Counted from the stretch's first letter, positions 4,954-32,010 are shown. The stretch is 38,422 bases of DNA from a virus (IMGVR_UViG_2925919700_000005:1-38422), one strand, 5' to 3'. A program made the numbers and translations. The notes: a model not told the origin generated them from the sequence alone.

Positions 4954-4975
4954 TTTAGGTCAACCCTTTGGCGTC

Positions 4976-6333: not shown

Positions 6334-6339
6334 TTAATC

Positions 6340-6493: not shown

Positions 6494-6508
6494 AAAGAGA
6501 ATCAAAAC

Positions 6509-6742: not shown

Positions 6743-6770
6743 TTCTCCAAATTAAAGTGAATGTTCACCT

Positions 6771-7373: not shown

Positions 7374-7458
7374 ACAACCCCCTTTAATTAATACCCGTAT
7401 TTATCAAAATATCAACAATTTAATAAATACCTTCATATTTCGTAATGAGGGTAATTAC

Positions 7459-9363
7459 ATGAAACTGATTTCAAATAAGGCAAAATTAAAAAAGATTCTT
7501 AAAAATATCTCTGCGGCAATTCGCCCACCTAAAACGATGAAACCTAGCGAATGGGTAGAGGCTAATGTAGTTGCAACCGATGGTGTTAAAGCCGGATCGC
7601 TAATTAAATTGCATCCCTTCCAACGTGGAATGATGGACGCGATCACCGAAGACCGTAGAAAAATTGTGTTTAAATGTTCGGCACAGTTGGGTAAGACCAT
7701 GATTCTTAACGGAATTATCTTCCATCGGATCGCGAGTAACCCTACTAATATTGGGGTGTTGCAAAGTAACGTTAGAGAACTAAATTCTTGGATCGCTGGT
7801 AAGGTGAAGCCAGTATTAGAGGCAACGCCAGAATTAAAGGCGATGATCACCGACAAATCAGACCGTAATGCCGTTAACAACTCATCGATTATTCAGCTTC
7901 GTAACGGATCATTCATGTATTTCATGTCGCTGAACAGTCCATCACACTTGCGCGGTAAAACACTCCCTTTGATTATTCTTGATGAAGTTGATGCGGCTGA
8001 TGAGTCAGACGAAGGGAACCCGATCCAGCTAGCGGAACAACGCGCAACCACTTTCGGGGAAGATGCAAGGATCGTAATTGCTTCCACTCCAACCGCTCGT
8101 GATGGGGCGATTAACCAACAATGGGAACTCTCGGATAAGAGAAAATATCATGTCGTTTGCCAGCATTGCGGACACAAGCACGTAATGGAATGGAGTAACG
8201 TACATTTCGATTGGCATACGATTAACGGTAAATCATTACCCAACCCAGATACAGCCGTTTACCGTTGCCCTGAATGTGAAACCGACTGGACCGAAGGGGA
8301 TCGCCTACGTGCTGTTGCTCAGGGAGAATGGGTCGCCACCGAACCAAACGCGGAAGTAATCGGTTTTCATGCTAACCGCCTTATGTCTCCGTTTAGTTCT
8401 ATCCGTGCGTGTGTGGTGGACTTTGCTGATAGCTACGCGAATATGTCGCTGGCAACGTTCTATAATGTGGTGCTCGGTGAAACCTTCGATGATCTTAACG
8501 AAGACCGCACAGCCGACGAATTAGAAACGCTGAAAACTGATATTAGCCTAGACAATATTCCTGATGATGTACTGGCTCTGGTTGGTGGAGTTGACCAGCA
8601 AAAAGACCGTCTGGAATCTACCTTGCTGGGTATTTCTCGTAAAGGGCTATGCGTAGTTGATCACCGATCATTCTATGATGTGAACTGCGAACGCCACGAA
8701 TCACCAGCATATAACCAGCTTTACAACTTCCTGAAAGCGAAATTCTATACCCGATCCGGTCAACGAATCCCGATGTTATCTGCTTTCGTGGACTCATCGA
8801 ACGGACGAGCTACAAACGTGATCTATCGATTCTGCACACAATGGCAAAACCTAACAGCCATTAAAGGGGCAAGCAATGTTGATGCTCCAATCCTTCCGGT
8901 CAAGGACACAAGAACGGGTGGTTTTACTCTTAAAATTCTGGGCGTAAACAACCTTAAGACGATGATCCGTGAAATGATTAACCGGAACTTGAGAGACAGC
9001 GATCCTCATACGGTCTTCCAGATTGGTGACGTTCCTGATGACTATTGCGAGCAATTGTTATCTGAACAGTTGAAACGGCAGGGTAATACCACACGTTGGG
9101 TAAAAGTTGGTCAGCAACGAAACGAGGCTCTCGACTGCCTGGCTTACTCCTATGCTGCTTCTCGCCATGTACTCAATAAAATGTCATGGGAAAAACTCGA
9201 AGCCATCAAAGATAGTTTGAACCGTGAACCAGAAGAACCCGTAGAAGCTCCTAAATCGCAATCTAACGAGCAAATAGAAGAAACTAAGCCAATCACACGA
9301 CCGCAACGTCAAAACATCGCCAGACGTCCAAATAGAGGCCGTAGCTGGGTAACATCGTTCTAA
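7459..9363 (+). CDS. terminase large subunit (lambda gpA-like ATPase/nuclease)
   Basis: Walker A CSAQLGKT and Walker B LPLIILDEVD; Cys/His cluster CQHCGH...CPEC; 634 aa, immediately upstream of the portal gene. Confidence 0.9.
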   Translation: MKLISNKAKLKKILKNISAAIRPPKTMKPSEWVEANVVATDGVKAGSLIKLHPFQRGMMDAITEDRRKIVFKCSAQLGKTMILNGIIFHRIASNPTNIGVLQSNVRELNSWIAGKVKPVLEATPELKAMITDKSDRNAVNNSSIIQLRNGSFMYFMSLNSPSHLRGKTLPLIILDEVDAADESDEGNPIQLAEQRATTFGEDARIVIASTPTARDGAINQQWELSDKRKYHVVCQHCGHKHVMEWSNVHFDWHTINGKSLPNPDTAVYRCPECETDWTEGDRLRAVAQGEWVATEPNAEVIGFHANRLMSPFSSIRACVVDFADSYANMSLATFYNVVLGETFDDLNEDRTADELETLKTDISLDNIPDDVLALVGGVDQQKDRLESTLLGISRKGLCVVDHRSFYDVNCERHESPAYNQLYNFLKAKFYTRSGQRIPMLSAFVDSSNGRATNVIYRFCTQWQNLTAIKGASNVDAPILPVKDTRTGGFTLKILGVNNLKTMIREMINRNLRDSDPHTVFQIGDVPDDYCEQLLSEQLKRQGNTTRWVKVGQQRNEALDCLAYSYAASRHVLNKMSWEKLEAIKDSLNREPEEPVEAPKSQSNEQIEETKPITRPQRQNIARRPNRGRSWVTSF

Positions 9364-9435
9364 TAACTCGCCGTCCTTCGGGGCGGCTTACTCCTAAATA
9401 TTGTTAATCCAATAACAATTAAATAAGGGGTAATT

Positions 9436-9930
9436 ATGAGTTTAGAACTAATTCCCTTAGTAATTCGTAAAGGCGAAAAAATCACGCTGGCGAATGAAGA
9501 GGGTGTAACCATTCAGGTCGGAAATAGTAAAGCTATCGTTTATCAAGTCGATGATGCACCGGAAAATCACGAGATTAAAACATTAGATTTTGCCGAGGGT
9601 AAATATACCATCGTAATAACTTTTGATGAAGAACTGGTATCAATGCAGGAATTAACTGTTTTACCAGTCTTTGCCAAACAATCCAAAAAACAGTATCTGC
9701 GGGAAACTATCGCCTTAATCGAGCAAGTTATTTTCGCCCGTTTATCTGGGGACGAAGCCGCATTATCTGCAATGACCGTGAAAGGGAATACTTTCGCCTA
9801 TGAGTCATTGGGTGTTCTCCAGACTCTAAAAGTCGATTATGAACGTCAGTTATCTAAAGTAATTCAAGCCGAACGACGTAAACAGGGAATTAGCCCTATT
9901 AAAAATATCAAATTACGTCTTACGCGATAA
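9436..9930 (+). CDS. hypothetical head-assembly region protein (164 aa)
   Basis: AAGGGGTAATT-ATG initiation region; lies between the terminase and portal genes. Confidence 0.6.
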   Translation: MSLELIPLVIRKGEKITLANEEGVTIQVGNSKAIVYQVDDAPENHEIKTLDFAEGKYTIVITFDEELVSMQELTVLPVFAKQSKKQYLRETIALIEQVIFARLSGDEAALSAMTVKGNTFAYESLGVLQTLKVDYERQLSKVIQAERRKQGISPIKNIKLRLTR

Positions 9931-9940
9931 GGGGTAAATC

Positions 9941-11452
9941 ATGTTTAATCTTTTTCGACGCAAAAAGGCGGTAGAAACTCCAGTTAAAACTAATCACCGC
10001 CAGCAACAACAAAAAATCTTTATCGACAAACAAGTAGAAAAATTCCAGAAAGATTTGTCTAAGCGTTCTTTGGGCTTAGTCGGTGATCGCATTGATGGAC
10101 AGCTTCAACAAGACACCATTACAGGAACCTTCAATAAGGCTCTCAAATCGAACGGTAAGCGCCTTTATGATCAGGGTCGTACTCTGGCTATAAACAATGC
10201 TGTAGGTAAGCGATACAAGCAGTATATCGTTGACCAAGTTGTTGGTACGGGGCTTGATCCGAAACCATCAATCGTTAAATCAAATGGCAAACTTGACACC
10301 GCACTGAATAAGCAGATCGAGAATGCTTTCTGGAAGTGGGCGCAGAGTGCTAAACGCTTCTCTCGCAACGGTCGCTTTAACTTCCGTGAAATGCTGGCAA
10401 TGGCAGAATCTGAACGTGTTCAGGGTGGAGAATGCTTCATCGTTTTAACCAAAGAGAACAATGAGTTACAAGTTTCTATTCTGTCTGCTGATAGGTGCGA
10501 CTGGTCGCTTAGTCGTGAAATAAGCAAAGAACGTGCGATCTATCAGGGGATTGAGTATGACGTAGACACAATGCGCCCTGTAGCATACTGGTTTAGAAAA
10601 ATCAATCTACTGACTCAGACCTACACTGGCGAAAATTATCGCGTAGATGCTTCTCAGGTGTGCCACTACTACCAGCCACTGTGCGCGGAAAGTTTACGTG
10701 GTGTGACTGACTTCCTGCCAGTGATTAAGGATATTGCGCATCAAGAAGCGTTCCGCGAAACCGCGATCGTCCAGAAACGTATTGCGGCTAGTTCTATGGG
10801 CTTTATCGAACGTCCTAAAGATTCTGGTGACGATTTTGATACTGGTGAAGAGGATGAACAATATCAAGCGCCGGAAGTAGTACAGGACTTTGCACCGGGT
10901 ACTATTCAGGAATTGCCGGAAGGGGCAACAATCAAGAGCATTCAATCATCGCAAAATGGCGATGACTTTAACAGCTTCAATGATGCGATGTTCACTAGCG
11001 TATCAATGGGCTTAGGCGTGTTCAAACAGGGCTTAACAGGAGATTGTTCACAGATCAACTACTCAGCCGCACGTTTTGGTGAATTAACTCAGCGTAACCG
11101 CATTAAAGCACTGCAAAACAAATTAATTGAAACAGTGGTATTGCCAATTTTCGAAGCATATCTACGCCATTATTCCGCGCGTGGTATTGTTCCGATTCGT
11201 ATTACTGCAATTCCTCATATTATCGATAACACTACTATTATTCGTCCGCGTTTTGAATCCGTCGATCCTATTAAAGACGTAAACGCCGAGATTGCTTTAA
11301 TTCAAAATGGTCTTAAATCACGTACTGCTGTTATTCTTGAACGTGGTGATGATCCTGAAAAAGTATTCTCAGAGATTCAAGCCGAAAAGAGCGCACTAAA
11401 TATTATCGTTGATGGTGAGAGCAAGGATAACCCTTCTCAAACCGATCCCTAA
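9941..11452 (+). CDS. portal protein
   Basis: 503-aa ORF between the terminase large subunit and the protease/capsid gene, the canonical portal position; size and acidic C-terminus fit. Confidence 0.8.
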   Translation: MFNLFRRKKAVETPVKTNHRQQQQKIFIDKQVEKFQKDLSKRSLGLVGDRIDGQLQQDTITGTFNKALKSNGKRLYDQGRTLAINNAVGKRYKQYIVDQVVGTGLDPKPSIVKSNGKLDTALNKQIENAFWKWAQSAKRFSRNGRFNFREMLAMAESERVQGGECFIVLTKENNELQVSILSADRCDWSLSREISKERAIYQGIEYDVDTMRPVAYWFRKINLLTQTYTGENYRVDASQVCHYYQPLCAESLRGVTDFLPVIKDIAHQEAFRETAIVQKRIAASSMGFIERPKDSGDDFDTGEEDEQYQAPEVVQDFAPGTIQELPEGATIKSIQSSQNGDDFNSFNDAMFTSVSMGLGVFKQGLTGDCSQINYSAARFGELTQRNRIKALQNKLIETVVLPIFEAYLRHYSARGIVPIRITAIPHIIDNTTIIRPRFESVDPIKDVNAEIALIQNGLKSRTAVILERGDDPEKVFSEIQAEKSALNIIVDGESKDNPSQTDP

Positions 11453-11497
11453 TAACCAACGGGGGCGCAATGCCCCCAATTAATTAAAGGTGATTAA

Positions 11498-13507
11498 ATG
11501 CTTAAATTTCGCCGCGATCTTAACGGTTACGGTGGAGTTATTAACGAAGGGCATAACGATCAATACGAGTTTGAAATTGCTTTCTCAAGTACACAGCCTT
11601 ATCAGCGCCAATTTTGGGATGAGCAAAATCAAGAAATGGTGGTATTAGATGAAATTCTGGTACATACACCGGAAGCGGTTGATCTGTCTCGTCTGAATAA
11701 TAACGCTCCGTTGCTGTTCAATCATAATTTCGATAATCACATTGGTGTCGTTTGTAACGCTCGAATCGATGCGGATAACGTAGGCCGTGCTCTGGTTAAA
11801 TTCTCTAAGCATGGGACTTTGGCTAATGATATTCGTAATAAAGTCATTGAAGGTACGATGGAAAAAATTTCTGTCGGTTATGACATTAAAGAATATCACA
11901 TCGACTACGCTAAATCGCAACTCATTGTTTCTAAATGGATTCCTCACGAAATTTCGTGGGTCACGGTGCCAGCGGACGATTCGGTCGGTTTAAATCGCTC
12001 TCTAAATACTATCACAGTTAATTTGGAGGCTAAACGCGATATGACTAAAGAACAAATCGAACAAGTTAAAGACGAAGAAGAAAAAGAAGTCGCTCAGGTT
12101 GAAGAAACTCCGGTAGAAGAAAATAAAGAATCGGAAGTTGAAGAAACTCAAGAGCGCCAAGTTGAAGAGAATGAAGAAAATGAAAATCTCGAAGACGGAA
12201 AAGACGCTGAACATCCTGAAAGTGTTGATGATGATAGTTCAACTGTTCGGGAAGCAGAAGAAATAAAAGAAGAACGTGAAGCTGCTCCGGTTGAAGAAGA
12301 AAAAATCGAAGAAGTGGCTGAACGTTCCGAAGAAGACGAAGAAGAAATTCGCGAAATTGCACGCGAACTAAATATTGATGACGAAGAATTGAAACGCGCA
12401 TTGGCAAATAAAGAAATGACGCCGGAAGCATTCCGCACTAAGGCACTAAATAACATTACCAATGCTCAACGTAATAACGAACAAATTAAGGACTCTAAAA
12501 TGGAAAAAACTTTTGACCTGAACAACGTAATTCGCTCTCTGGTAGATGGTGAAGCTCTGGGTGCTAACGAAGCCGAGTTTTCTGCAATGGCTGCTACTGC
12601 AACTATGCAGCGTGGTCGTGCTGCTCGTGGTGGCTCTGTATTCGTTCCGGCTGCTGCTATGCGTGCTGCTGCTGCTGGTAACACCAAAGCCGATCTGACT
12701 GCTATCACCGACGAAAAACTGATGACTGAATCCTACATCGAAATGCTGATGCCGGAATCTGTTCTGGGTCGTCTGGGTGTGACTGTTTACAGTGGCTTGA
12801 ATGCTCCGACCGCTATTCCAAAAATGACTAAATCCAGCGTTGATGCTTTCGGCTTCGTTGATGAAAACGGTGCTGCGCCGGAAAGCAAAGCTGAATTTGC
12901 GAACGTGAAACTGTCTCCTAAGACTTTCGCTGGTGGCAACCCGATTAGCCGTCAGTCTCTGAAAACCGTTCCGGGTATCGCTACCCTGATCACTGACCAC
13001 ATTAACAAAGCTGTTCGTATCAAACTGGAACAACTGATTCTGTCTGACAAAGAAAATGCTCGTGGTCCGGCTGGTCTGGTTAAACAACTGGTAGACGGTG
13101 GTCGCGTAGAGAAGAAAGCTGCTTTCTCTTACAAAGATTTCCTGAAAGAAATTGCTAAACTGACCGACGCTGGCGTTCCTGCTCAGGCGATCAAGTTTGC
13201 GATGAGCGGTGCAACTGCTGCCGAACTGGAATCTACCCTGAAAGATAACGGCGTTTCCGGTTATATCATCGAAAACGGCAAACTGGCTGGTTACGAAGTA
13301 GTTACTTCTGGTGTTATTCCGGCAGATCACATCGTTCTGGGTGACTTCTCCGGCATCACTATCGGTGAGTGGGGCGGTCTGGAACTGGATATGGACGACA
13401 CTACCTACCGTGCACAGTCTGCTATCGTTCCGCGTATCTGGGTAGATCTGGATTATGTTGTTACTCAGCCGGAAGCTCTGAAAGTTCTTCACCTCTCCGC
13501 TGAATGA
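11498..13507 (+). CDS. prohead protease - scaffold-like acidic linker - major capsid protein fusion (HK97-type)
   Basis: N-terminal ~170 aa carry an S78-protease-like motif HEISWVTVPADD; aa ~190-330 are an E/K-rich coiled coil; the C-terminal ~330 aa look like an HK97-fold capsid protein; terminator follows. Confidence 0.75.
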   Translation: MLKFRRDLNGYGGVINEGHNDQYEFEIAFSSTQPYQRQFWDEQNQEMVVLDEILVHTPEAVDLSRLNNNAPLLFNHNFDNHIGVVCNARIDADNVGRALVKFSKHGTLANDIRNKVIEGTMEKISVGYDIKEYHIDYAKSQLIVSKWIPHEISWVTVPADDSVGLNRSLNTITVNLEAKRDMTKEQIEQVKDEEEKEVAQVEETPVEENKESEVEETQERQVEENEENENLEDGKDAEHPESVDDDSSTVREAEEIKEEREAAPVEEEKIEEVAERSEEDEEEIREIARELNIDDEELKRALANKEMTPEAFRTKALNNITNAQRNNEQIKDSKMEKTFDLNNVIRSLVDGEALGANEAEFSAMAATATMQRGRAARGGSVFVPAAAMRAAAAGNTKADLTAITDEKLMTESYIEMLMPESVLGRLGVTVYSGLNAPTAIPKMTKSSVDAFGFVDENGAAPESKAEFANVKLSPKTFAGGNPISRQSLKTVPGIATLITDHINKAVRIKLEQLILSDKENARGPAGLVKQLVDGGRVEKKAAFSYKDFLKEIAKLTDAGVPAQAIKFAMSGATAAELESTLKDNGVSGYIIENGKLAGYEVVTSGVIPADHIVLGDFSGITIGEWGGLELDMDDTTYRAQSAIVPRIWVDLDYVVTQPEALKVLHLSAE

Positions 13508-13647
13508 AATAACGTAGAACCTTCTGTACCTTCCCCCGATTTGGGGGAAGAAAATCTGATTCCATCTCAGGAAGAAGAATCCCAGACGGTTACGGCGAAA
13601 GCCCCAGCTAAAAAGGTGGGACGTCCACCGAAAGCAAAATAATAATT

Positions 13648-13676
13648 AGCCCTGCCTAACGGTGGGGCTTTTTTGT
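13648..13676 (+). terminator. Rho-independent terminator after the capsid gene
   Basis: AGCCCTGCC-TAAC-GGTGGGGCT stem followed by TTTTTTG. Confidence 0.7.
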
Positions 13677-13704
13677 ATGTAAATACTCCATAAAGGGGGT
13701 AACT

Positions 13705-13995
13705 ATGTTCAAATTATCAGAATCACAATTATCAAGAATGTTCCGAAGTGCTCCTGTATTTTCGGTGGAAGGTGGTAAATCAATTCGTGCTTATCATGAA
13801 ATTACTACTACCGACGAACAAGGGGTAATGACAGAAACAGAGTTTCTATTTTGTCGTGAGGGAGACTTAAAGCAAGGTGATATTGTCATTGTAGAAAATC
13901 AGCGTTTCAAAGTTCAATACGTTAAGCGCAATGGTGACAATACAACTGATTGCTTTATCACTCTGGCAGGGGGTACACATGCTCGCTACCGTTAA
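13705..13995 (+). CDS. putative head-tail connector/adaptor protein (96 aa)
   Basis: AAAGGGGGTAACT-ATG; position directly after the capsid gene; functional call is by position only. Confidence 0.5.
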   Translation: MFKLSESQLSRMFRSAPVFSVEGGKSIRAYHEITTTDEQGVMTETEFLFCREGDLKQGDIVIVENQRFKVQYVKRNGDNTTDCFITLAGGTHARYR

Positions 13996-14401
13996 TAACA
14001 TGCCTAGACTGAAAATCAAACGCGCCTTGCAAGATATTATCGAACAAGATTTAGGTCTGGCTTTAAACGTAGAACAAACTCAGCAAGGCTTTAGTGATGA
14101 CGTGGTTTGTTGGATCACCGGAATGAATGAGACTTACACGCGTGTTCGTGGCGGTAATGCAATGCAAGCTGAATGTGTTATCGAAATGCAATTGTATTCT
14201 CAGATTCATGAAACCAAAATTCATGAGGGTATTTGCCAGATAATCCAGATTCAGCCGGATAACCCACGATTTAAAGATTTGGGCTTCTCTATTTCAGATA
14301 TCACTCCAGTAGCTTCTAATACCGATTATGACGATGATTCTAGTGATGGGGGTATCGTTGGGACACTTAGCCTTAAATTTTCTTATCTAGCGCGTTTTTA
14401 A
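13979..14401 (+). CDS. putative head-tail joining / tail terminator-like protein (140 aa)
   Basis: ATG 13979 has an AGGGGG SD and overlaps the upstream stop (coupling); the track's 13931 start is in the same frame. Confidence 0.5.
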   Translation: MLATVNNMPRLKIKRALQDIIEQDLGLALNVEQTQQGFSDDVVCWITGMNETYTRVRGGNAMQAECVIEMQLYSQIHETKIHEGICQIIQIQPDNPRFKDLGFSISDITPVASNTDYDDDSSDGGIVGTLSLKFSYLARF

Positions 14402-14410
14402 GGGGTAATA

Positions 14411-15244
14411 ATGAATATTACACAAGATAACTTAGACATTTTCACGGGGTCGCATGTTGAAGTCTCCGTGTCTACTATGGTGGATAACCAGCCGGATTTT
14501 TTCGATCCTGCATTTAGTCCTATCGAGAACATCGCAGCATTCCCGACGATAACCGAATCCACAGAGATCCAGACGTTAGAAGAGTATGATCAGGACGCTA
14601 CGGGTAAACTTGCTGGCTATCGTAAACTTGAATCAACTACGTTAGTAGTAAACCGTGTTCTGGATGACGAACATCAAGACATGTTGATGAAAGCGGTGAA
14701 TGATAAAACTCCTTTACGCTTTCGTATGTTCTATGTTGTGAACTCTGGTTACAGTGCTGCTAACACAGGTTACTACGTCATCTTTGACGCTTTCGTCTCG
14801 TCACATAAAACAAAATCCGGCGATAACAAAGCTGTAACACTGGAATTTAAACTTGAACCAGATGGCGGGATTTTGGCAAGGGGTATTGCTACCGAAGGCC
14901 GGATCTTACGTCAGGGTGATTTTGGTATTGGTGCTGGTGTAAATCCATTCACTGGTCCGATTGATAGCGAAGCATTAGCCGGAAACCGTTTCGTAACTTA
15001 TCAGGGATCAAGCGCATCTAATCCATTTAGTGCTGATACTTCACTAATTCACGTTCAACCTAATGAAGATGGTGGATGGCAATTAACTTGCACCGCTTCC
15101 GGCGCACCACGTTTACGAGTTCGCACAGTCCAGAAAGACGGTAATTCGGGATGGGTGAAAGTGTATTCCACAGAAGAAAAACCGACACCAGCCGAGATTG
15201 AAGCCGTTTCTATCCATGACCGGATCGATTTCGGGGAATACTGA
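14411..15244 (+). CDS. virion structural protein (277 aa); C-terminus shares a KPTPAEI motif with the tail fibre
   Basis: AAGGGGTAATA-ATG; C-terminal EEKPTPAEIEAVS versus fibre DKPTPAEIGAYS; hairpin and T-rich tract follow. Confidence 0.55.
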   Translation: MNITQDNLDIFTGSHVEVSVSTMVDNQPDFFDPAFSPIENIAAFPTITESTEIQTLEEYDQDATGKLAGYRKLESTTLVVNRVLDDEHQDMLMKAVNDKTPLRFRMFYVVNSGYSAANTGYYVIFDAFVSSHKTKSGDNKAVTLEFKLEPDGGILARGIATEGRILRQGDFGIGAGVNPFTGPIDSEALAGNRFVTYQGSSASNPFSADTSLIHVQPNEDGGWQLTCTASGAPRLRVRTVQKDGNSGWVKVYSTEEKPTPAEIEAVSIHDRIDFGEY

Positions 15245-15317
15245 TTGCTTCTCTAAATAAAACATGACGCGGGAGGTTAACGCCTCCCTTATTCCTGTTT
15301 TATAGTGAGGTGATTCG

Positions 15318-18839: not shown

Positions 18840-18877
18840 TTGGAAAGCGGGGAGAAATCTCCGCTAAGGATTCTTAT

Positions 18878-19174: not shown

Positions 19175-19176
19175 TT

Positions 19177-19784: not shown

Positions 19785-19838
19785 ATAAATAGAATTACGG
19801 GTATGTGCCCTATTGTTTAAAATAGAAGGAAAAGAATA

Positions 19839-20312: not shown

Positions 20313-20320
20313 TATTATCT

Positions 20321-20349
20321 AGCCATCCTTCGGGGTGGCTTTTTTGTTT
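20321..20349 (+). terminator. Rho-independent terminator after the tail tube gene
   Basis: AGCCATCC-TTCG-GGGTGGCT followed by TTTTTTGTTT. Confidence 0.75.
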
Positions 20350-20606
20350 CCAATTCTAAATAAACATATCGAATTAACTTAAGAGGAAACAAGAATGAAT
20401 ATTAATGAAATGTTAGCCGCACTCTCTCCGAAACGTGAATCTTTGACCATCGGTGGATTCACTTTCTATGCTCGCCCTATGTCAGTAAAAGAATTTAACG
20501 AACATGTTTTCAATACTGATAAAGAAGACCGTGATGAACGTTCTATTCTTCGTTGTATTGAAGATGAAGACGGTAAGCCAGTATTTGAATCTATGGAACA
20601 AGTTAA

Positions 20607-20615
20607 GGCACTGTA
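20607..20615. repeat. IS10 target-site duplication, left copy (GGCACTGTA)
   Basis: Identical 9-mer immediately flanks both ends of the element. Confidence 0.95.
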
Positions 20616-21944: not shown

Positions 21945-21953
21945 GGCACTGTA
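21945..21953. repeat. IS10 target-site duplication, right copy (GGCACTGTA)
   Basis: Perfect copy of 20607-20615. Confidence 0.95.
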
Positions 21954-22070
21954 TACTAACGTTCGAAGTGAATTAATCGGTTTAGTTGCTCAAGCGTCAT
22001 TGATGCAAGATCCGGCAGTAATTGAAAACGAGGTAAAGTAAACCCGCTTCTGAATTTCTATTTCCGGCAA

Positions 22071-22412
22071 ATGATGAGATCGGGGCTTAGTAAAGATGAA
22101 ATGGATAATATGCCAATCACTCTGTTTTGGAAATTATACATTTTCGACACCTACTTAGAACCACAAAGCCCCGCGTTTCATGATATGCAGAATGCGATGT
22201 TGCAATATTCCATGTATATGACGTCGCAAGGAATGACACGCGAAACTGCACGTAAACTCAAGCCTAGCCAATTCCAATTAATTAGAGAAGAAAAACTCTT
22301 TAAAACTAAAGAAGAACTGGAAGAAATTGCACGCAAGAAAGAAGAAGAACGTAAAGCGGCAATGCTGAACATGTTTGATCCATCTTTGCTTGAGAAACTC
22401 AGAAGCGGTTAA
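22071..22412 (+). CDS. tail assembly protein (lambda T-like position), possibly the downstream part of a frameshifted chaperone
   Basis: This frame is -1 relative to the chaperone and open from 22026; ends just before the tape measure start. Confidence 0.5.
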   Translation: MMRSGLSKDEMDNMPITLFWKLYIFDTYLEPQSPAFHDMQNAMLQYSMYMTSQGMTRETARKLKPSQFQLIREEKLFKTKEELEEIARKKEEERKAAMLNMFDPSLLEKLRSG

Positions 22413-22423
22413 AGGGGTAATTT

Positions 22424-24853: not shown

Positions 24854-24856
24854 TTA

Positions 24857-24903
24857 AAAGCCCTCATAGTGATAAATAATCATAAAACTATGGGGGCTTT
24901 TTC
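24857..24903 (+). promoter_or_regulatory. Hairpin AAGCCCTCATAG...CTATGGGGGCTT that sequesters the GGGGG Shine-Dalgarno of the next gene; also terminator-like (T-run)
   Basis: 12-bp stem with one G-U pair and a 19-nt loop, followed by TTTTT; the right arm GGGGG lies 9 nt upstream of ATG 24905. Confidence 0.5.
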
Positions 24904-24904
24904 T

Positions 24905-25465
24905 ATGTTCAAATCCAAAAATATTAAAATCACAGATTTTACTCTTAAATCAAAACAACCTTTCTTCAAGGCGCAATCTATTTCTGGTAAGTTCCAGCGT
25001 CGCTTTACTGGTATTCATTTTTATGAAGCAGAATTTACAGCTAATTTCATGGCTCAGGATATTAACGAAGTAAAAGAATTTGTAGCACGTCACCTTTTTG
25101 GTCGTCCTTTTAGTGTGCCACTGTCTTACTTTTCAAAATATACAGGTGATGTACGCCAGATGGTTACGGCTGCTGCTGGTACTGCTCGCGGTGGGCGTAA
25201 GGTGAGAATCTCCAACTTCACCGGAACACTGAAAGCGGGAACTATCATCCAGTTTGAGAACCACAAGAAAATCTACACGATCACCGAAGATGTGAAATCA
25301 GGTGGTGAAATGAAACTCTTCCCTAACTTGCGTCAGAACGTCCTGGCGGGTGAGGTGATCAAGTATCAAAACGTAGAAGGCGAATTTGTTCTCAAAACTG
25401 AAAATATCGATTGGAAGATCGCCCAGATTGGCAAGATGAAATTCGAATTAGTGGAGAATGTATAA
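24905..25465 (+). CDS. minor tail protein (lambda gpM-like position)
   Basis: First gene after the tape measure; start chosen at ATG 24905 downstream of the hairpin; functional call by position only. Confidence 0.5.
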   Translation: MFKSKNIKITDFTLKSKQPFFKAQSISGKFQRRFTGIHFYEAEFTANFMAQDINEVKEFVARHLFGRPFSVPLSYFSKYTGDVRQMVTAAAGTARGGRKVRISNFTGTLKAGTIIQFENHKKIYTITEDVKSGGEMKLFPNLRQNVLAGEVIKYQNVEGEFVLKTENIDWKIAQIGKMKFELVENV

Positions 25466-26118
25466 TGGCAACTATTCAGGAATCATTCAGCAAACTATGC
25501 ACTAATCTGGACTTCATCGAGGTCTACAACGACCAGACAGGTCAGAATGTGTCTAGATTGACGCTACCGCAGCTTTTTTCCACTGGATCGATGTTTCACA
25601 TTATCGAAGTGATAACAGCGTCAGGGGACGTTCTACGGCTTACAGATGGGTATTTCGATTTGGACTATAACGGATTTACGTATCTCGCAACGGGTGATTT
25701 TCTTCAAATCTCATCGAATACCGAAGAGAAGGAGATCAACAACAACGGGATCAACGTAACTGTTTCTAACGTTCGCGAAGAATACATTACCCTGATTCGA
25801 AACAAGCAATTCGATAAATCAGATGTGAAAATCGAGATGGTTTTCCTGAACCCTAACACGGGCAAGGTTGAAACCACTTACCCTGTTTTCCGTGGGGTAG
25901 TCGATTCCATCGGGATTAACATCGAACATGAAGATGATGAGTGTAAAAACGAATCAGAATTTCAGCTTAATAGTATCTGGGAAGTTCTAGATAAAAACGC
26001 TCGTAGTCATGCTTCCGATGGTATCCACCGATCCTATGTTGGAAACGAGAACGATCTATTCTTCTCAAGGGCGGGTCGCTGGCAATCGGAAAGCAAGTGG
26101 CATTCATCGAAGAAATAA
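25465..26118 (+). CDS. minor tail protein (lambda gpL-like position)
   Basis: ATG overlaps the upstream stop (TAATG); GGAGA SD; position in the tail tip cluster. Confidence 0.5.
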   Translation: MATIQESFSKLCTNLDFIEVYNDQTGQNVSRLTLPQLFSTGSMFHIIEVITASGDVLRLTDGYFDLDYNGFTYLATGDFLQISSNTEEKEINNNGINVTVSNVREEYITLIRNKQFDKSDVKIEMVFLNPNTGKVETTYPVFRGVVDSIGINIEHEDDECKNESEFQLNSIWEVLDKNARSHASDGIHRSYVGNENDLFFSRAGRWQSESKWHSSKK

Positions 26119-26164
26119 TCCCTTCTCCCTAAGCCTAGTAAATAACAGCATGGAGGTATTCAAC

Positions 26165-26584
26165 ATGCTAAAAACTAGGCTTATCACCGATTACATCAAT
26201 TCTTTAATAGGTCAGGAGTTCGTTCAAGGCGAGAATGATTGCAATCTAATTGCATGTAAGATCATCGATATTCTCGCTGGTACTGACCTATATAATTCTC
26301 TTTATAAAAAATATTCAACTAAAGAAGAAGGCTTGAAAATCTGCAAAGAATTAAGCGGGTATTCAAATATCCTTCAACCAATTAAGAAACATTTCAAATT
26401 AGTCACTGATGATTTACAGGACGGCGACTTACTGGTCACAGCCCACAAATTAGGGAACCGCAAATATTATTCCGTAGTTCCTCATTATTCCGGTTATGGC
26501 CTCGTTGAAGAAGATGGTATCTGGATGACCATTCCTGTTTCAGACATTGAATATGAACAAGTTTATAGATTCGGGGGTGAATAA
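26165..26584 (+). CDS. tail assembly protein with NlpC/P60-like Cys-His motif (lambda gpK-like C-terminal domain)
   Basis: GGAGG SD; QGENDCNLIACKI (candidate catalytic Cys) and a downstream His (TAHKLG); stop overlaps the J start. Confidence 0.5.
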   Translation: MLKTRLITDYINSLIGQEFVQGENDCNLIACKIIDILAGTDLYNSLYKKYSTKEEGLKICKELSGYSNILQPIKKHFKLVTDDLQDGDLLVTAHKLGNRKYYSVVPHYSGYGLVEEDGIWMTIPVSDIEYEQVYRFGGE

Positions 26585-29500
26585 TGGGATTTGAAGTATT
26601 GGTAGGCGCGGTTATTGCTGGTGCGTCTGCTGGGATGGCTGCTGCTGCAACATTTTCTGTTATGACCGCAGTCGCTATCGGTATGGCTGCTGGTGCAATG
26701 ACCTTGATCGCTTCCACTGTAGGCGCACCAAAAACACCTAAAGTACAAAGCCCAGATAATGCGGTGACACTAGGAACATCAAACGATCCTAAGACAGTAT
26801 TACCCGTCCTTTTCGGTACTACCCGCACGGGTGCAATCTGCGTTTACAAAGCAATTTCACAGCGTGAAAACAACAAACTGGTACAAATTTTTGCTATTTC
26901 AGAAGGTGAGATCGATCACTTTAAAGCACTGCACATCGATAATAAAAATGTTCTCATTAGCCAGAATATGACAATTCGTGATGGTGTTCTCGATAAAGGA
27001 AACATTAAAGAAGAATACCGCAAAGTGTTAGAAGTCGAGTTTCGCACGGGTAAAAATCCTAACACCGCATTGGATTTAGCTAAACATCATTTGGGCGCAG
27101 ATTGGGATGATCGGTATCAGGGTAACGGCATTGCGACCATGTGTATTGTTTTACGTCGTGATGACAAATCTTTGGCTGCTGGTGTTGATATTCTCCAGCC
27201 TAATAGCCAGGTAGCGGTCGATGTTATGGGCTTAAAAATCCGTAACCTCGAAACCAATGCTATTGAGGCAAGCACTAACGGCGTGGACCAGATTTTCCAT
27301 TACCTAACAAATGAAAAATATGGTCTATCAGTACCAATTGAAAACATTAACGTTGATTCATTCCTGAAAGTACGTAAGCAAGTACGCCAGATGGATTTGC
27401 ATTCAAACGGTGCATGTGATCCGAACGCCAGCTTTAAAGAGAACTTGACTAGCCTTATGCAGACTTTCGGCGGGGTAATGTTCGAATCCTTCGGAAGAAT
27501 TACCCTGAAACTGGATGCTCCTGATATTGTTAAGCATACCTTCAATGAAGACAATATTATGATGGGTAAAGTATCACTGAAAACAGGTGGCACTAACGGT
27601 TATTTCAATACCATTAACGCGATGTATCAAGAACCATCAATTGACTATTCCGAGCAAATGCTACGTTATCCGGCTGATGCTGAAAACGATGCTACTATTC
27701 GTCAAGATGGTCGAATTATCGCTAAAGATATTGAATATCGTTTTGTTAAGTCTAAAGCCCAGATTGATAAACTCGCGAGCATTGAGCGAAATAAATCTCG
27801 TATCACTCAGGTTATCAGCTTCATGACTACTGACGCATTCACTGCCGAAGTGTGGGATGTTATTAGCGTTACCTATGATGAATTGAAACTGAATAATTCA
27901 CTTTGGCGCATTACTGCAATTGATCGCTCGATTGATTCTGGTATTGCTGGGATGATGACTATCACCGCCACAGAATATAATTCTCAGGTTTATACTGACC
28001 TGAACTATGCGGCGACTCCAGACAATAGACCTACCGGTTTACCGGATTCAATGACAGTACAGAAACCGACTAATTTCAGAATTAAGGCAACTGGTGAGAC
28101 AATCCACGGTAAAAACGTAACTTTGACATGGGACGCACCGGAAGATTTTAACCGCTACGGTTTCCAGATTGATTATCGTGTGAGTGGATCACCTAACTGG
28201 ATTAAGCTGGGACAGACTTCACAGCAAATTTTCAATATCAATGCACTGGCAAAAGATCGCTCCTACGATTATCGCGTTTGTGCTTTCGGTATTATTGCTC
28301 GTTCCGAATGGGTGGAACTGGTTAACCAGAATCCAGAAGTTACCTATGAACTGCCTACTCCAGTGATCCGCATCAAAAATCAGGGTAGTTCACCTGGTAC
28401 TTTCGAAGGCAATGATCTGATTATCGAATGGGAAAATCAGCAACAATTAGATGTGATGATCAACGGCGAAGCTAACAAGTTTAGTGACCTGTTTGAAGCA
28501 TACATTATCAAGGTGACTAACAAGGCTGGTAAGTCTATTCAGTACCGTACCCGCGATCCTGAATCATGGACCTATACGCTTGATATGAACCAGTTTAACG
28601 GCCTTTCCCGTGAATTGACGGTAGAAGTATCGGCTAAGGGCTATAACAACTCAGAGAGCGCCCCAGCGCGTTTAGTGGCTATCAACCCACAACATAAGCC
28701 GATGAAAGGTTTTAGTGCGCGTGGTGGCTTTAATACTGCGTTTGTTAGCTGGGCGGATGACGTAGAACATGACTATGCAGGGTCAATCATTCAGTATGCA
28801 ACCGATAACACTTTCTCCGATGCAAGGGCAGTGACTACCAATAGCGTTAGTCATACTTCCTTTGATTTGGCTGACGGTGATTATTATATCCGTGGTGCTC
28901 ACTACGATATTTTCGGTATGGATGATGCTGTTTGGTCTGAACCGTATTTCATGCAAATGAAATCTACCATTAGCTGGGACGATCAGGACAAAGAAGCACT
29001 TGAAGACCTGATTGGTTTACAAGATCGCTTAGATGAAACTATCGCGGATGCTATTGCTCAAGCTGGCGCTAATGCCGATGCTAAAATTGATGCAATGCAT
29101 AAGCAAATCACTACCGAAACCGGAAAGACGGTCCAAGCCTCAGCCGATACTCTCAAGAGTCTGATTGCTACCAGCGAGCAAGCTAGCTCCACTAAGATTG
29201 ATCAGGTTAAAGCTGAACTGAAAGGCGATATCACCAATGAAGTTAGCGCATCTGCTACTACCCTGAAACAAGCAATTGCTACCAGTGAGGCAGCAAGCGC
29301 AAGTAAGATCGACCAAGTTCGGGTAGAAATGGATGGCAAGATTGCTGGTGTGAATCAGGAAGCAGATGTAAAAATCGATGCTTTGAAAGGAACCATTAAC
29401 AGCAAATACAATCTAGCGGTTAATGCAGATGGTCGCGTGGCTGGTATTCATATGAGCGCAACCAACGATCCGGCGCAACCGACGAGAATCATCTTTACGG

Positions 29501-30360
29501 CTGATAAAATCGCGGTAGCTCCACAGAACGGATCGGAAGTATGCCCGTTTGGTATCGAAGATAACAAAGTTTATCTCGATAATGCGATGATTCGTAATGC
29601 TGCAATTGGCACAGCCCAGATTAGTGATGCTAGTATCACCACGGCTAAAATCGGCACAGCCCAGATTAACGGCGCTCACATCCAACACGCACAGATCGGA
29701 ACAGGTCATATTATTGATGGCTCTATCGATAATGCTAAAATTGGTAACTATATCCAGTCTTATAACTGGAATGGTAACGATGGATGGTATATCGGGAAGG
29801 ATGGCACTTGTCATTTTAGACACGCTAACATTCGTGGTCATTTGGTGGCTGATTCCGGCGAAATGAACAACGTAACGATTAATTCAAGTTGCCGCATTTT
29901 GGGTATGCTTGATGCTAATCAGGTGCGTGGTGACTTCGTGAAAGCTATTGGTCGTCGATTCCCACATTGGGACGAAAACCCATCATTGGGCTATCCCGGT
30001 TATCCGCAAGGTACAATCACTGTTCGAATTGAAGATGATCACCCGTTTGATCGTCAGATTATCGTTCCGGCTATTAGCTTTGGTGGTCTTAATGCGCGTG
30101 AAGGCTCGAATAACAATACTTACTATGATAACTGTCGCTTGATTGTTCGCAAGAACGGTGCTGAATTATATAACCGTGCATATGGTAGACAGACTGGATT
30201 GTATAGTGCTGTTATTGATATGCCAGCCGGACACGGACCAGTTACGCTAACTTTTGAAGTAAGTTCAAGCGCAATCAACAACTGGACTCCCAGCACATGG
30301 ATCAGCGATCTAACGGTAATGGTAACTAAGAAAGCCGCTACTGGTATTTCTGTTTCTTAA
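26584..30360 (+). CDS. central tail fibre / host specificity protein (lambda J-like) with an N-terminal gpI-like Gly/Ala-rich segment
   Basis: C-terminus DDHPFDRQIIVPAISFGG...MPAGHGPVTLTFEVSS...DLTVMVTKKAATGISVS closely parallels the lambda J receptor-binding C-terminus (from memory); fibronectin-III-like repeats mid-protein; N-terminal 90 aa resemble the lambda I C-terminal region. Confidence 0.9.
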   Translation: MGFEVLVGAVIAGASAGMAAAATFSVMTAVAIGMAAGAMTLIASTVGAPKTPKVQSPDNAVTLGTSNDPKTVLPVLFGTTRTGAICVYKAISQRENNKLVQIFAISEGEIDHFKALHIDNKNVLISQNMTIRDGVLDKGNIKEEYRKVLEVEFRTGKNPNTALDLAKHHLGADWDDRYQGNGIATMCIVLRRDDKSLAAGVDILQPNSQVAVDVMGLKIRNLETNAIEASTNGVDQIFHYLTNEKYGLSVPIENINVDSFLKVRKQVRQMDLHSNGACDPNASFKENLTSLMQTFGGVMFESFGRITLKLDAPDIVKHTFNEDNIMMGKVSLKTGGTNGYFNTINAMYQEPSIDYSEQMLRYPADAENDATIRQDGRIIAKDIEYRFVKSKAQIDKLASIERNKSRITQVISFMTTDAFTAEVWDVISVTYDELKLNNSLWRITAIDRSIDSGIAGMMTITATEYNSQVYTDLNYAATPDNRPTGLPDSMTVQKPTNFRIKATGETIHGKNVTLTWDAPEDFNRYGFQIDYRVSGSPNWIKLGQTSQQIFNINALAKDRSYDYRVCAFGIIARSEWVELVNQNPEVTYELPTPVIRIKNQGSSPGTFEGNDLIIEWENQQQLDVMINGEANKFSDLFEAYIIKVTNKAGKSIQYRTRDPESWTYTLDMNQFNGLSRELTVEVSAKGYNNSESAPARLVAINPQHKPMKGFSARGGFNTAFVSWADDVEHDYAGSIIQYATDNTFSDARAVTTNSVSHTSFDLADGDYYIRGAHYDIFGMDDAVWSEPYFMQMKSTISWDDQDKEALEDLIGLQDRLDETIADAIAQAGANADAKIDAMHKQITTETGKTVQASADTLKSLIATSEQASSTKIDQVKAELKGDITNEVSASATTLKQAIATSEAASASKIDQVRVEMDGKIAGVNQEADVKIDALKGTINSKYNLAVNADGRVAGIHMSATNDPAQPTRIIFTADKIAVAPQNGSEVCPFGIEDNKVYLDNAMIRNAAIGTAQISDASITTAKIGTAQINGAHIQHAQIGTGHIIDGSIDNAKIGNYIQSYNWNGNDGWYIGKDGTCHFRHANIRGHLVADSGEMNNVTINSSCRILGMLDANQVRGDFVKAIGRRFPHWDENPSLGYPGYPQGTITVRIEDDHPFDRQIIVPAISFGGLNAREGSNNNTYYDNCRLIVRKNGAELYNRAYGRQTGLYSAVIDMPAGHGPVTLTFEVSSSAINNWTPSTWISDLTVMVTKKAATGISVS

Positions 30361-30378
30361 AATTTAATTCTAATAATT

Positions 30379-30418
30379 AATCCCGCTTAATTCTTTTGGG
30401 TTAGGCGGGATTATTTTT
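30379..30418 (+). terminator. Rho-independent terminator after the J-like gene
   Basis: AATCCCGC ... GCGGGATT followed by TTATTTTT. Confidence 0.7.
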
Positions 30419-30462
30419 ATCTAAATAATTCTGCCATTAAATTATAAAATATCGGGGGCGTA

Positions 30463-30741
30463 ATGACTGAAATTATATATGGCGGTATCGGTGTTATCGC
30501 CTTAATTTGTGGTGGTCTTTGGAGACTTCACCGAAATCAATTAGCAACAGAAAATAGATTGTCGAAATTAGAGTCCAATGATGCATTGTTTAATCAGAAG
30601 TTTGAAACAATGCAAAGTAACCACGACCAGATCGCCGAGAGAGTTTATCGCATGGAACAAACACTACACGGTATAGAGAAGAAAGTGGTTGCGATGGACG
30701 CCAAATTTGACCAAGTTCTCGACATACTCAAACAAAAATAA
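30463..30741 (+). CDS. membrane protein with one N-terminal TM helix and a coiled coil (holin- or spanin-like)
   Basis: TM segment IIYGGIGVIALICGGLW followed by a coiled-coil region; ATCTAAATAATTCTG box upstream; lies four genes upstream of the endolysin. Confidence 0.5.
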   Translation: MTEIIYGGIGVIALICGGLWRLHRNQLATENRLSKLESNDALFNQKFETMQSNHDQIAERVYRMEQTLHGIEKKVVAMDAKFDQVLDILKQK

Positions 30742-30759
30742 TAATAAAGGGGTGAATAT

Positions 30760-30930
30760 ATGAAGAATAAACTTAAGAAATATTTTGGTTATCTCTTGAT
30801 TATCGCCCTCACTTATAACGTAGCAATTAGACCTCTGCTAACGTCCTTTGGGCTTGAACTCCCGGCTATGACCGTGGATGAGCAATTGCTAAGGACACTG
30901 GCGGGGGTCTTTTCGTTATTAGGGGGCTAA
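30760..30930 (+). CDS. small membrane protein (56 aa), below the ORF-track cutoff
   Basis: AAGGGG SD 8 nt upstream of the ATG; translation MKNKLKKYFGYLLIIALTYNVAIRPLLTSFGLELPAMTVDEQLLRTLAGVFSLLGG; stop abuts the next start. Confidence 0.45.
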   Translation: MKNKLKKYFGYLLIIALTYNVAIRPLLTSFGLELPAMTVDEQLLRTLAGVFSLLGG

Positions 30931-30931
30931 C

Positions 30932-31615
30932 ATGGCAACCAGTACCAATAAACGAAACGCTCTAAGGACTAAGAAAGCGTTACGCCAATGGACTGATAAA
31001 GCAACCGATACATTCGAAAGGGCGATAGGGGAAGGGGCGATCTTTGCTTCCAGAGCACTCCAGAAGAAGATTAACAAGAATGTTGATAGACCTACTCGCT
31101 GGACTCAGCAAGCTGTAGGTAATACCAACTACAAGAACCGATCAGGGACGAGACACCAAATCTTCATCAAGGGCGCAAGGGATAAGGACAAGAAGATCGG
31201 CAGTCAAGACGACTATCTGAAACACTATTTCGATGGTGGCAAAATCAATAAGCTAGTGCCAATAGCTAACGGTAAGGTCTTAGACTCCCACGGGAACATT
31301 AAGGCCATTAAAGGCGGTAAGATGATGCGTAACATCGAAAATGGCAACTTCATCAAGGTAGAGAACAAGGAAGGGACTTTTATCATGAAGAAGTACAAGC
31401 CTAAGAAATCCCGAACCAAACGCGCTAGGAATGGATCGGCGGTGGCAAAACGTCGCTTAGAGAAACGCATACAGAAACAGAGCAAGCGAATTGTTGCCGT
31501 TAAGTCAGATAAAATTTCTACTCGTTATTCGACGCTAGGATCGTGGGAAAGCAACGAGGAAATGATGCTTAAGAACATTAATAAGCACATTAAATCGCGC
31601 ATGAGATACGTTTAA
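30932..31615 (+). CDS. highly basic hypothetical protein (227 aa)
   Basis: AGGGGG SD; Lys/Arg-rich throughout; no recognisable family. Confidence 0.6.
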   Translation: MATSTNKRNALRTKKALRQWTDKATDTFERAIGEGAIFASRALQKKINKNVDRPTRWTQQAVGNTNYKNRSGTRHQIFIKGARDKDKKIGSQDDYLKHYFDGGKINKLVPIANGKVLDSHGNIKAIKGGKMMRNIENGNFIKVENKEGTFIMKKYKPKKSRTKRARNGSAVAKRRLEKRIQKQSKRIVAVKSDKISTRYSTLGSWESNEEMMLKNINKHIKSRMRYV

Positions 31616-31653
31616 TCCATAAATACCCTCATAGAATCTTATGGGGGTATAAC
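31616..31653 (+). promoter_or_regulatory. Second copy of the CCCTCATA...TATGGGGG hairpin, sequestering the SD of the 31654 gene
   Basis: ACCCTCATA-GAATCT-TATGGGGGT; the right arm is the SD 7 nt upstream of ATG 31654. Confidence 0.45.
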
Positions 31654-32001: not shown

Positions 32002-32010
32002 GGGGGTAAT

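Follow-up and report, generated by a model that had tools for sequence, protein, structure and literature searches.

We analysed a stretch of viral DNA of 38,422 nucleotides (nt) (IMGVR_UViG_2925919700_000005:1-38422), called here the window, which over its whole length (1..38422, attL to attR) is a complete, mobile element integrated in the ycdX gene of Escherichia coli. About 21 boxes with an invariant TAAATA core and the consensus t[A/C]TAAATA lie upstream of roughly two-thirds of its transcription units, and our analysis confirmed them as conserved, oriented signals of promoter-like character. The best-supported description of the boxes would be T4-type late promoters in a non-T4 integrated element. 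The reading that we prefer, at a probability of about 0.4, is that late promoters of the gp55 class, which have a -10 element only, drive most of the element and are most probably read by a factor from a T4-like helper phage. A promoter function is supported because the boxes are strand-specific, lie 16-80 nt before the annotated start codons (11 nt for the box at 5418), are often located 3' of terminators and are kept at orthologous sites amid diverged flanks, and because sigma-70-like sequences are depleted.

Placement and orientation of the TAAATA boxes

Sense windows of -90 to -12 before the start codons of the genes with an upstream gap (n=28) were submitted to an unbiased k-mer count. 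TAAATA was the top-ranked 6-mer and was found in 19 of the 28 windows, while its reverse complement was found in 2; 2,000 dinucleotide-preserving shuffles of these windows gave a mean of 3.7 windows with TAAATA (standard deviation 1.7, maximum 10). The whole element has 33 occurrences of TAAATA on both strands. The sequence [A/C]TAAATA is present 28 times in the window when 18.9 ± 4.1 copies are expected, a mild excess that was reached in 1 of 100 shuffles, and since this total is only modestly high the signal consists of placement and orientation. The windows devoid of a box include those of the IS10 transposase, the integrase, the capsid gene and genes with ordinary sigma-70 promoters.

The control regions were counted by the same method. 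TAAATA was present in 11 of 22 sense windows of the late region of phage RB49, in 1 of 18 of its early region, in none of 12 of the T4 early/middle region and in none of 18 of the E. coli genes on either side of the element. Most late boxes of RB49 read (T/A)ATAAATA and two read CTAAATA; they are located 18-55 nt before start codons, a distance similar to that of 16-80 nt in the element. Comparison of 19/28 with 11/22 thus showed that the element bears the signature of a T4-family late region at a higher density, the frequency of the box in its upstream windows being at least that of the genuine RB49 late region.

The boxes could instead be RNA-level signals of 5' leaders (for processing or translational control), protein-binding sites or a by-product of an AT-rich composition. 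This explanation would be in keeping with the modest excess of [A/C]TAAATA and with the 11-20 nt that separate some boxes (5418, 629, 13678 and 26137) from the start codon, but we consider it very improbable. Chance and AT-richness were ruled out by the antisense counts, by the dinucleotide-preserving shuffles, which strand bias and placement both survived, and by AT-rich control regions that are devoid of the signal; moreover, the boxes are kept where flanks diverge, and several stand just 3' of terminators, where transcription of an RNA signal would require a new start.

Alignment of 19 boxes showed that the information content is about zero from -45 to -10 and that the six positions of the core hardly vary. 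TAAATA is preceded by an adenine in 10 boxes, a cytosine in 6, a guanine in 2 and a thymine in 1, and one position further upstream a thymine is found in 10. The exact octamer TATAAATA is present in seven copies, all intergenic, and four boxes have in common the extended sequence TATAAATA(A/G)TAGTGA(G/A). The segment from +6 to +12 after the T of TAAATA has an A/T content of about two-thirds, the intergenic background being barely lower (63% A/T).

An earlier note on this DNA had described seven CTAAATA-type boxes, 30-45 nt upstream of structural and lysis genes, as a second family that fits a late promoter class. All seven are present on the + strand, at 7421-7431 (TAATAAATACC), 13675-13688 (GTATGTAAATACTC), 15251-15263 (CTCTAAATAAAAC), 19781-19795 (CTAAATAAATAGAAT), 20355-20367 (TCTAAATAAACAT), 30419-30433 (ATCTAAATAATTCTG) and 31616-31630 (TCCATAAATACCC), and have TAAATA in common, but the distance measured from the end of the box to the ATG is 17-55 nt. 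The claim that several directly follow terminators holds for three of the seven, which come after a hairpin and T-run at 13648-13669, 20321-20340 and 30378-30413, and fails for the hairpin at 15271-15288, which is downstream of its box. The promoter part of the proposed class is backed by strand specificity, placement and orthologous conservation; its restriction to late genes and the separation of a second family are not supported in that form, the TAAATA core being the same as in the left-arm TATAAATAATAGTGAG boxes and the box also preceding 10 non-structural genes, on both strands. The boxes that we add are those at 9393 (before gene 9436), 26137, 5418, 629 and 34570, and those at 7405, 6779, 3180, 3238, 407 and 37887 on the minus strand. 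Neither the match with T4-family late promoters nor the missing cognate factor had been mentioned.

Boxes of individual genes and their conservation in relatives

The box of TerL (AATAAATA, 7422..7429, +) is located 29 nt before the ATG (7459), and TTAATAAATAC is invariant at this site in 17 distinct relatives, including the Salmonella relatives L020 and L021. On the other strand, GATAAATA (7398..7405, -) lies 24 nt before the divergent gene of a 200-amino-acid (aa) protein (7373-6771); this box is kept in relatives and reads TATAAATAC in L020 and L021. The next box, CCTAAATA (9393..9400, +), is found just 3' of a stem-loop (9370-9387) and 35 nt before the head-tail joining-like gene 9436, with orthologous boxes in L020, L021, L022 and L023. 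Directly 3' of the terminator at 13648-13669, TGTAAATA (13678..13685, +) precedes gene 13705 by 19 nt; its orthologues are GTAAATACTCC in L020 and L022 and TATAAATA in L021. The fibre gene (15318) has TCTAAATA 58 nt upstream (15252..15259, +), which would leave the hairpin at 15271-15288 in the presumed 5' leader, and the orthologous boxes are TCCTAAATAAAAC in L022 and TCATAAATACC in L020.

Two overlapping boxes, GCTAAATA and AATAAATA (19780..19791, +), are located 47-51 nt before the tail tube gene (19839), and the box of this gene is found in the window, in L021, L023, L024, L025 and L026, and in the phage record DCP80 (see below). The box of the tail chaperone gene (20395) is TCTAAATA (20355..20362, +), 32 nt before the gene and directly 3' of the terminator at 20321-20340; the site reads TTCTAAATAAAC in the window, TTATAAATAAACG in L021 and TTCTAAATAAAGT in L023. 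A weaker candidate, AGTAAATA (26137..26144, +), is present 20 nt before gene 26165. The holin-like gene (30463) is preceded at 35 nt by TCTAAATA (30420..30427, +), directly 3' of the terminator at 30378-30413, and gene 31654 is preceded at 28 nt by CATAAATA (31618..31625, +). The late genes behind boxes are TerL, 9436, 13705, the fibre, tube, chaperone and holin-like genes and 31654, to which the 10 non-structural genes are added.

In the left arm, GATAAATA (629..636, +) lies 16 nt before the terS-like gene (653), the exact T4 octamer TATAAATA (in the family form TATAAATAATAGTGAG) lies at 1230..1237 (+) before gene 1317, and a further exact TATAAATA at 400..407 (-) lies 31 nt before gene 368-63. 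Two exact octamers are found upstream of gene 3111-2929, at 3173..3180 (-, in the form TATAAATAATAGTGAG, with a -35-like TTGAAA at 18 nt) and at 3231..3238 (-). The first is one arm of a perfect 15-nt inverted repeat whose other arm is 4448-4462, and the two arms (3166-3180 and 4448-4462), which hold TATAAATAATAGTGA boxes, bracket a non-coding region of 1.39 kb (3112-4500), called the iteron region below. The exact octamer at 4448..4455 (+, TATAAATAATAGTGAA) is 45 nt before gene 4501 and also fits TAGACA-16-AATAAT; the orthologous site in L022 is TTATAAATAATAG. The box CATAAATA at 5418..5425 (+) lies 11 nt upstream of the GTG annotated for the Rha/Ant-like gene, which may in fact begin further downstream, and TCATAAATA is likewise found upstream of the Rha genes of L020 and L022. 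At 6772..6779 (-), TCTAAATA precedes by 29 nt a gene for a 77-aa helix-turn-helix (HTH) protein (6742-6509), the orthologous site being CTCTAAATAATAG in L020, ATCTAAATAATAG in L021 and CTCTAAATAATAT in L022. In the right arm, AATAAATA (34570..34577, +, within AATAAATAGTAGTGAG) lies 32 nt before the GIY-YIG/CapR-domain gene (ATG 34610), and an exact TATAAATA (37880..37887, -) lies 30 nt before the gene of an 81-aa secreted protein (37849-37604).

A GC-rich hairpin is located 0-40 nt 3' of several boxes (3153-3167, -; 1272-1290, +; 15271-15288, +). After the box at 3180 the hairpin begins approximately at the expected start of transcription and has a T-run behind it; this hairpin could serve either to stabilise the 5' end or to attenuate read-through from the upstream sigma-70 promoters. 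Four CTAAATA copies (11396, 12002, 12368 and 12446) are intragenic, being located where the portal gene ends and within the first half of the capsid gene, and these copies (11396-12452) could be due to chance or be internal starts; the capsid gene's own upstream gap of 45 nt has no box.

TerL homologues of 36-81% identity showed that the element belongs to a large family that is widespread in Enterobacterales, with members in Salmonella, Citrobacter, Enterobacter, Kluyvera, Pantoea, Serratia, Providencia, Edwardsiella and Cedecea. Seven relative loci were compared, the distant relatives having been obtained by protein search and contig look-ups; a scan of species-representative genomes with a single protein gave no relatives, and a scan of IMG/VR gave near-identical copies only. 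In the five closer relatives (81-50% TerL identity), TAAATA was again the top sense upstream 6-mer, present in 8/11, 8/13, 12/20, 10/19 and 6/13 windows, and in two relatives of 40% identity, which have more compact operons, it is still found before the terS-TerL operon and the tube gene. Orthologous boxes are kept while their flanks differ, the TerL box being AATAAATAC, TCTAAATAC or CATAAATAC across the relatives.

These comparisons bear on a division of the boxes into two classes, in which those of the TATAAATAAT type would be weak sigma-70 promoters (with TATAAA or AATAAT as the -10) of early or accessory genes and the CTAAATA boxes would form a separate, activator-dependent late class. Within the window, the base before TAAATA is an adenine in 9 of 10 non-structural boxes and a cytosine or a guanine in 7 of 9 structural and lysis boxes (p = 0.005), a test in which the box sites are not independent samples; both boxes that flank the iteron region have properly spaced -35-like hexamers, and the extended TATAAATA(A/G)TAGTGA(G/A) is found in four boxes. 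However, the split is lost in the pooled relatives (p = 0.24, with sites again not independent), and adenine and cytosine swap at orthologous sites, which indicates that they are interchangeable at -12 over evolutionary time. Most ATAAATA boxes are without a -35, the core is as invariant in one group as in the other at all six positions, and no second conserved element that could serve an activator was found near the CTAAATA boxes. We consider two classes improbable, and conclude from the sequences that the supposed second family and the TATAAATAATAGTGAG boxes would form one family, possibly graded in strength.

Proposed T4-type late promoters and the search for their factor

A combined sigma-70 score of at least 9 of 12 was reached by only 3 of the 21 boxes, at 4448, 3180 (-) and 3238 (-), which score 9-10 and are the only ones with a -35-like hexamer at 16-18 nt; for the structural and lysis boxes the match to the sigma-70 consensus never exceeds 8 of 12. 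Sigma-70 promoters were ruled out as the identity of these structural and lysis boxes, since a -35 and a TGn are absent and the -10 hexamers are poor; the sequence itself shows that, of the -11 A and the -7 T required by sigma-70, CTAAAT and TAAATA are each missing one. The consensus sequences of the E. coli factors sigma-S, 28, 32, 24 and 54 presumably do not fit TAAATA. The structural region has 25 sigma-70-like promoters compared with 40.9 ± 6.0 in shuffles, and each of the three scans gave fewer sigma-70-like matches than the shuffles did; both arms have an excess of terminator-like hairpins.

Near-consensus sigma-70 promoters were found at only three places, the exits of the iteron region, the operon of the 110-aa HTH protein and Rha, and the CapR-like/UvsW operon, and the genes behind them are likely those that the host polymerase alone would express. 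Two tandem promoters (3533..3589, -; TTGACA-17-TATACT and TTGAAA-17-TATAAT, both with TG) are located in the iteron region, and about 350 nt without an open reading frame (ORF) follow the promoters in the transcripts that leave it. The second place (4989..5017, +; TTGACA-17-TATGAT) precedes the 110-aa HTH gene, itself without a TAAATA box. A perfect TATAAT (34523-34528, -) is found before the CapR-like/UvsW operon, which is probably served by an ordinary sigma-70 promoter.

The late promoters of T4 consist of TATAAATA at -13 to -6 with no -35, 32 of 50 sites being perfect and 9 having an adenine at -13; those of phage Aeh1 have (a/g)C at -13/-12, i.e., CTAAATA, and the -13 T is poorly conserved in RB49 and other T4 relatives (PMC2988020, PMC1524935). 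Like the boxes of the element, T4-family late promoters have the 8-bp -10-like TATAAATA, tolerate variation at -13, are devoid of a -35, occur on either strand and precede virion and lysis genes, often 3' of terminators. Unlike them, the boxes described here lie in an integrated element of siphovirus type in which no gp55, gp33 or gp45 and no T4-type replisome were found, also precede non-structural genes, and have a cytosine or a guanine at -12 in 8 of 19 cases. The CTAAATA 7-mer of Aeh1, with a cytosine at -12, is that of the boxes at 9393, 15252, 19780, 20355, 30420 and 6779; however, Aeh1 nearly always has the cytosine, encodes its own divergent gp55 and infects Aeromonas, whereas the element mixes adenine and cytosine and resides in E. 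coli.

A search of the window by tblastn with T4 gp55, gp45 and RpbA gave best E values of about 3, 0.3 and 0.4, respectively, none of which is significant, and gp33 was not detected in the window. No sigma factor or RNA polymerase family was found among the ORFs of the element with Pfam, PHROGs and NCBIfam, at least one of these profile libraries having been used on each ORF of at least 50 aa except 19177-19482, 19482-19784 and 22071-22412. The 200-aa protein divergent from TerL was modelled from 24 homologues (predicted local distance difference test score 77), and its model had no match in the PDB at E ≤ 0.001 and none like sigma or gp55; structures of the T4 late-transcription complex have been determined and should be among those searched. 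A recognisable gp55 of the element's own was rejected as a candidate after tblastn, the three libraries and this model had all given no match. Besides terS, no non-structural protein is conserved across the stretches examined of the box-keeping relatives, which exclude the right arms of the distant ones.

The element has several DNA-level links to T4-like phages. UvsW (32519-33706) has 84% DNA identity to phages of the RB49 group, and the distal fibre region (16181-19800) has 79-96% identity to the gp37 regions of T4-like phages, including three paralogous ORFs in tandem, each of about 100 aa (18878-19784), which are also found 3' of gp37 in some T4-like phages; both stretches point to recent exchange of DNA with T4-like phages. 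The relatives carry gp38, a gp36 domain and Endonuclease VII, and the best phage homologues of the GIY-YIG/CapR-domain protein are all in RB49-type and other T4-like phages. An 89-aa ORF at the right end (38153-38422, -) matches phrog_6147 (E = 4e-32); its homologues are about 55% identical (418 records), the best being in lytic myoviruses of about 150 kb (Phapecoctavirus, Justusliebigvirus and Campylobacter phages), and this is another gene common to the element and large virulent phages.

The only relative of the element in the phage database is the Escherichia phage record DCP80 (PQ671644.1, L005), a public 'complete genome' of 141 kb classified as Gaprivervirus. Its first 30.7 kb or so (1-30720) are a syntenic cousin of the element, with an ori-like non-coding region, TerL, portal, capsid, tail, Endonuclease VII, lysis and terS genes and GTTATAAATAA boxes; no integrase was found in this segment. 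At 30721 an abrupt junction leads to sequence 98% identical to Gaprivervirus phages, which has T4-type capsid genes and in which rIIA, genes 46/47, rpbA and spackle are each present twice. The duplicated T4-like blocks, the T4-type capsid genes and the abrupt start of 98% identity make a true hybrid phage unlikely, and the record looks like a chimeric co-assembly from the lysate of a T4-like phage. It is suggestive of a co-occurrence of the element with T4-like phages, short of proof.

No gp55, gp33, gp45 or sigma factor being detectable and genes having been exchanged recently with T4-like phages, the factor would most probably come from a T4-like helper, and since the strongest sequence links are to RB49-like Krischviruses these are the leading candidates. 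In the mechanism that we propose, the element would be largely silent until a T4-like phage arrives and supplies a gp55-class sigma in trans. With this sigma, the E. coli RNA polymerase core would open the boxes by recognition of the octamer on its non-template strand, the predicted start of transcription would be about 6-7 nt 3' of the box, and a DNA-loaded sliding clamp would boost initiation, as in T4. The iteron region, UvsW and the kilobase-scale homology to helper genomes may allow replication and clamp loading during the infection. RB49-type phages have unmodified cytosine DNA, so that a T4-like shut-off of cytosine-DNA transcription would not be expected from them.

Nearly as likely as a helper is an autonomous temperate phage, for which the boxes would be late or general promoters of its own. 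The host polymerase would then be redirected to them by an unrecognised factor that the element encodes, either a novel protein that binds RNA polymerase or a very divergent sigma like gp55, and that would be expressed from one of the few sigma-70 promoters. In favour of this, the modules for virion, lysis and integrase are complete and an origin-like region of iteron type is present, the few near-consensus sigma-70 promoters could drive a first-stage regulator, and candidate DNA-binding proteins are available (three paralogous HTH domains, the Rha-like protein and two CapR-domain proteins); furthermore, either A or C is accepted at -12 of the box, which sets it apart from the logos of coliphage T4 relatives. 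Against an own factor stand the negative tblastn and profile searches for a sigma- or gp55-like protein, the predicted lack of a sigma-like fold in the 200-aa candidate beside TerL, the absence of any candidate regulator conserved in the examined flanks of box-keeping relatives, and the coincidence that a non-homologous convergence on the exact T4 octamer and its -10-only layout would represent. In addition, no isolated phage of the family is present in a collection of 50,697 records, where the best TerL match is 44.5% identical, despite the element being carried by about 1% of complete E. coli genomes.

Several points weigh against late promoters read by a helper's factor. A full virion gene set with lysis genes and an integrase is what an autonomous temperate phage usually has, small regulators of phages are often missed, and orphan regulators are common in phages. 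A cytosine is present at -12 in 6 of the 19 boxes, which is rare in coliphage T4 relatives, and T4 gp55 holds the -12 adenine in a specific pocket; the start sites, and with them the register of -13 to -6, are predicted, and sigma-70 could be used at the three left-arm boxes (4448, 3180 and 3238). Classical T-even phages degrade cytosine-containing host DNA and block its transcription, which would disfavour a chromosomal element. The exchange of fibre genes is common between unrelated phages and is no proof of dependence, and the DCP80 link could merely be a contaminating induced prophage.

The integrated element and its relation to T4-like phages

In E. coli chromosomes, ycdX is broken exactly at window position 1 and picks up exactly after 38422, and carriers of the element (80-99% identity) amount to 63 of 5,426 complete E. 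coli genomes. The ORF listing and the profile searches showed terS and the iteron region, a set of small regulators, genes for the virion and for lysis, UvsW, two nuclease-like genes with a CapR domain and a large serine recombinase. The terS-like gene is at 653-1222 (+; phrog_57, E = 2e-16) and the Rha/Ant-like regulator at 5437-6333; TerL (from 7459), the portal (from 9941), the protease-capsid fusion (from 11498), the fibre (15318-18839), the tail tube (from 19839), the tape measure (from 22424) and the tail tip (from 26584) follow, with a lysis region that includes an M15 peptidase at 30463-32364. The right arm encodes the UvsW helicase (32396-33895, -), the two CapR-domain genes (33886-34455, -, and 34610-35785, the second being the GIY-YIG/CapR-domain gene) and the recombinase (35859-37538, -). 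The virion set thus comprises terS, TerL, portal, protease-capsid fusion, tube, tape measure, distal tail protein, tip and fibre, together with the lysis genes; the tail module is lambda-like and the genes indicate a virion of siphovirus type. No DNA polymerase, primase or CI-like repressor was recognised among the ORFs by the profile scans, and none of the several HTH proteins present, alongside the integrase and the iteron array, could be assigned as repressor, initiator or late regulator.

The iteron region has at least 8 copies of TTTTGCCCCTGAAA with a spacing of about 21 bp (3629-3817) and repeats of ACTAGATGATnCTAGA, and looks like an iteron-type origin or a regulatory hub; at the corresponding position, L022, L023, L024 and L026 have a gap of about 0.85-1.15 kb. 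The 60-aa (2929-3111, -) and 77-aa (6509-6742, -) proteins and the C-terminal 60 residues of the 200-aa protein (6771-7373, -) have a common motif, e.g., ISRGTYYSRLKKYGIK and IDQSTFHKLLKKYDIK, and look like three paralogous HTH DNA-binding domains. A copy of IS10 (20616-21944, transposase 20629-21837, -) is inserted in the tail assembly chaperone gene and is bracketed by a 9-bp target duplication (GGCACTGTA); its RNA-OUT (21830-21899, 97 bits) is the sole Rfam match in the window. The chaperone gene is intact in the relatives (102 aa), and this copy of the element is therefore probably defective for tail assembly.

Phage satellites such as the P4-like elements, the phage-inducible chromosomal islands (PICIs), the capsid-forming PICIs and the PICI-like elements (PLEs) of Vibrio cholerae are, like this element, integrated and await a helper. 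Replication and repressor genes are not recognisable, and the element has, like the PLE, CapR-domain proteins derived from homing endonucleases. Satellites are without most or all virion genes, whereas the element encodes terminase, portal and capsid, a fibre and a complete tail, as well as lysis genes. Virophages such as Sputnik use the late promoter of their giant-virus host. The likeness of the element to them is one of logic only, namely own capsid genes, the helper's late motif before essentially all genes and no transcription machinery of its own; virophages are eukaryotic, with no sequence or structural relationship to the element, whose dependence on a helper is inferred. Our literature searches found no satellite that uses T4-type late promoters and no description of this element, of a T4 satellite, a T4-dependent prophage or a ycdX prophage, or of CTAAATA promoters outside T4-like phages.

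We tentatively consider that the family, widespread in Enterobacterales, could be a helper-dependent hyperparasite of gp55-encoding lytic phages (T4-like, of the RB49 type in E. coli). Such a hyperparasite would have a complete siphovirus-type genome with its transcription, and probably its replication too, outsourced to the helper, would keep nearly all of its genes behind the helper's late promoter and, after infection by the helper, would build and release its own virions with T4-type fibre tips. It would be a bacterial counterpart of a virophage.

To our knowledge, T4-type late transcription, with its -10-only promoter, minimal sigma and replication clamp as activator, is regarded as confined to T4-related phages. 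A promoter of this type in an unrelated-looking prophage family without the factor would mean either an unknown second solution to its reading or a new phage-on-phage parasitism, and there is a substantial chance that the pattern of boxes marks such a new kind of parasitism on T4-like phages. The genes concerned are carried by about 1% of complete E. coli genomes and are at present annotated almost wholly as "hypothetical". If the parasitism is true, lysates of T4-like phages for therapy could carry hitchhiking elements, of which DCP80 may be an example, and both the annotation of the element and the view of gene exchange between temperate and virulent phages would be affected.

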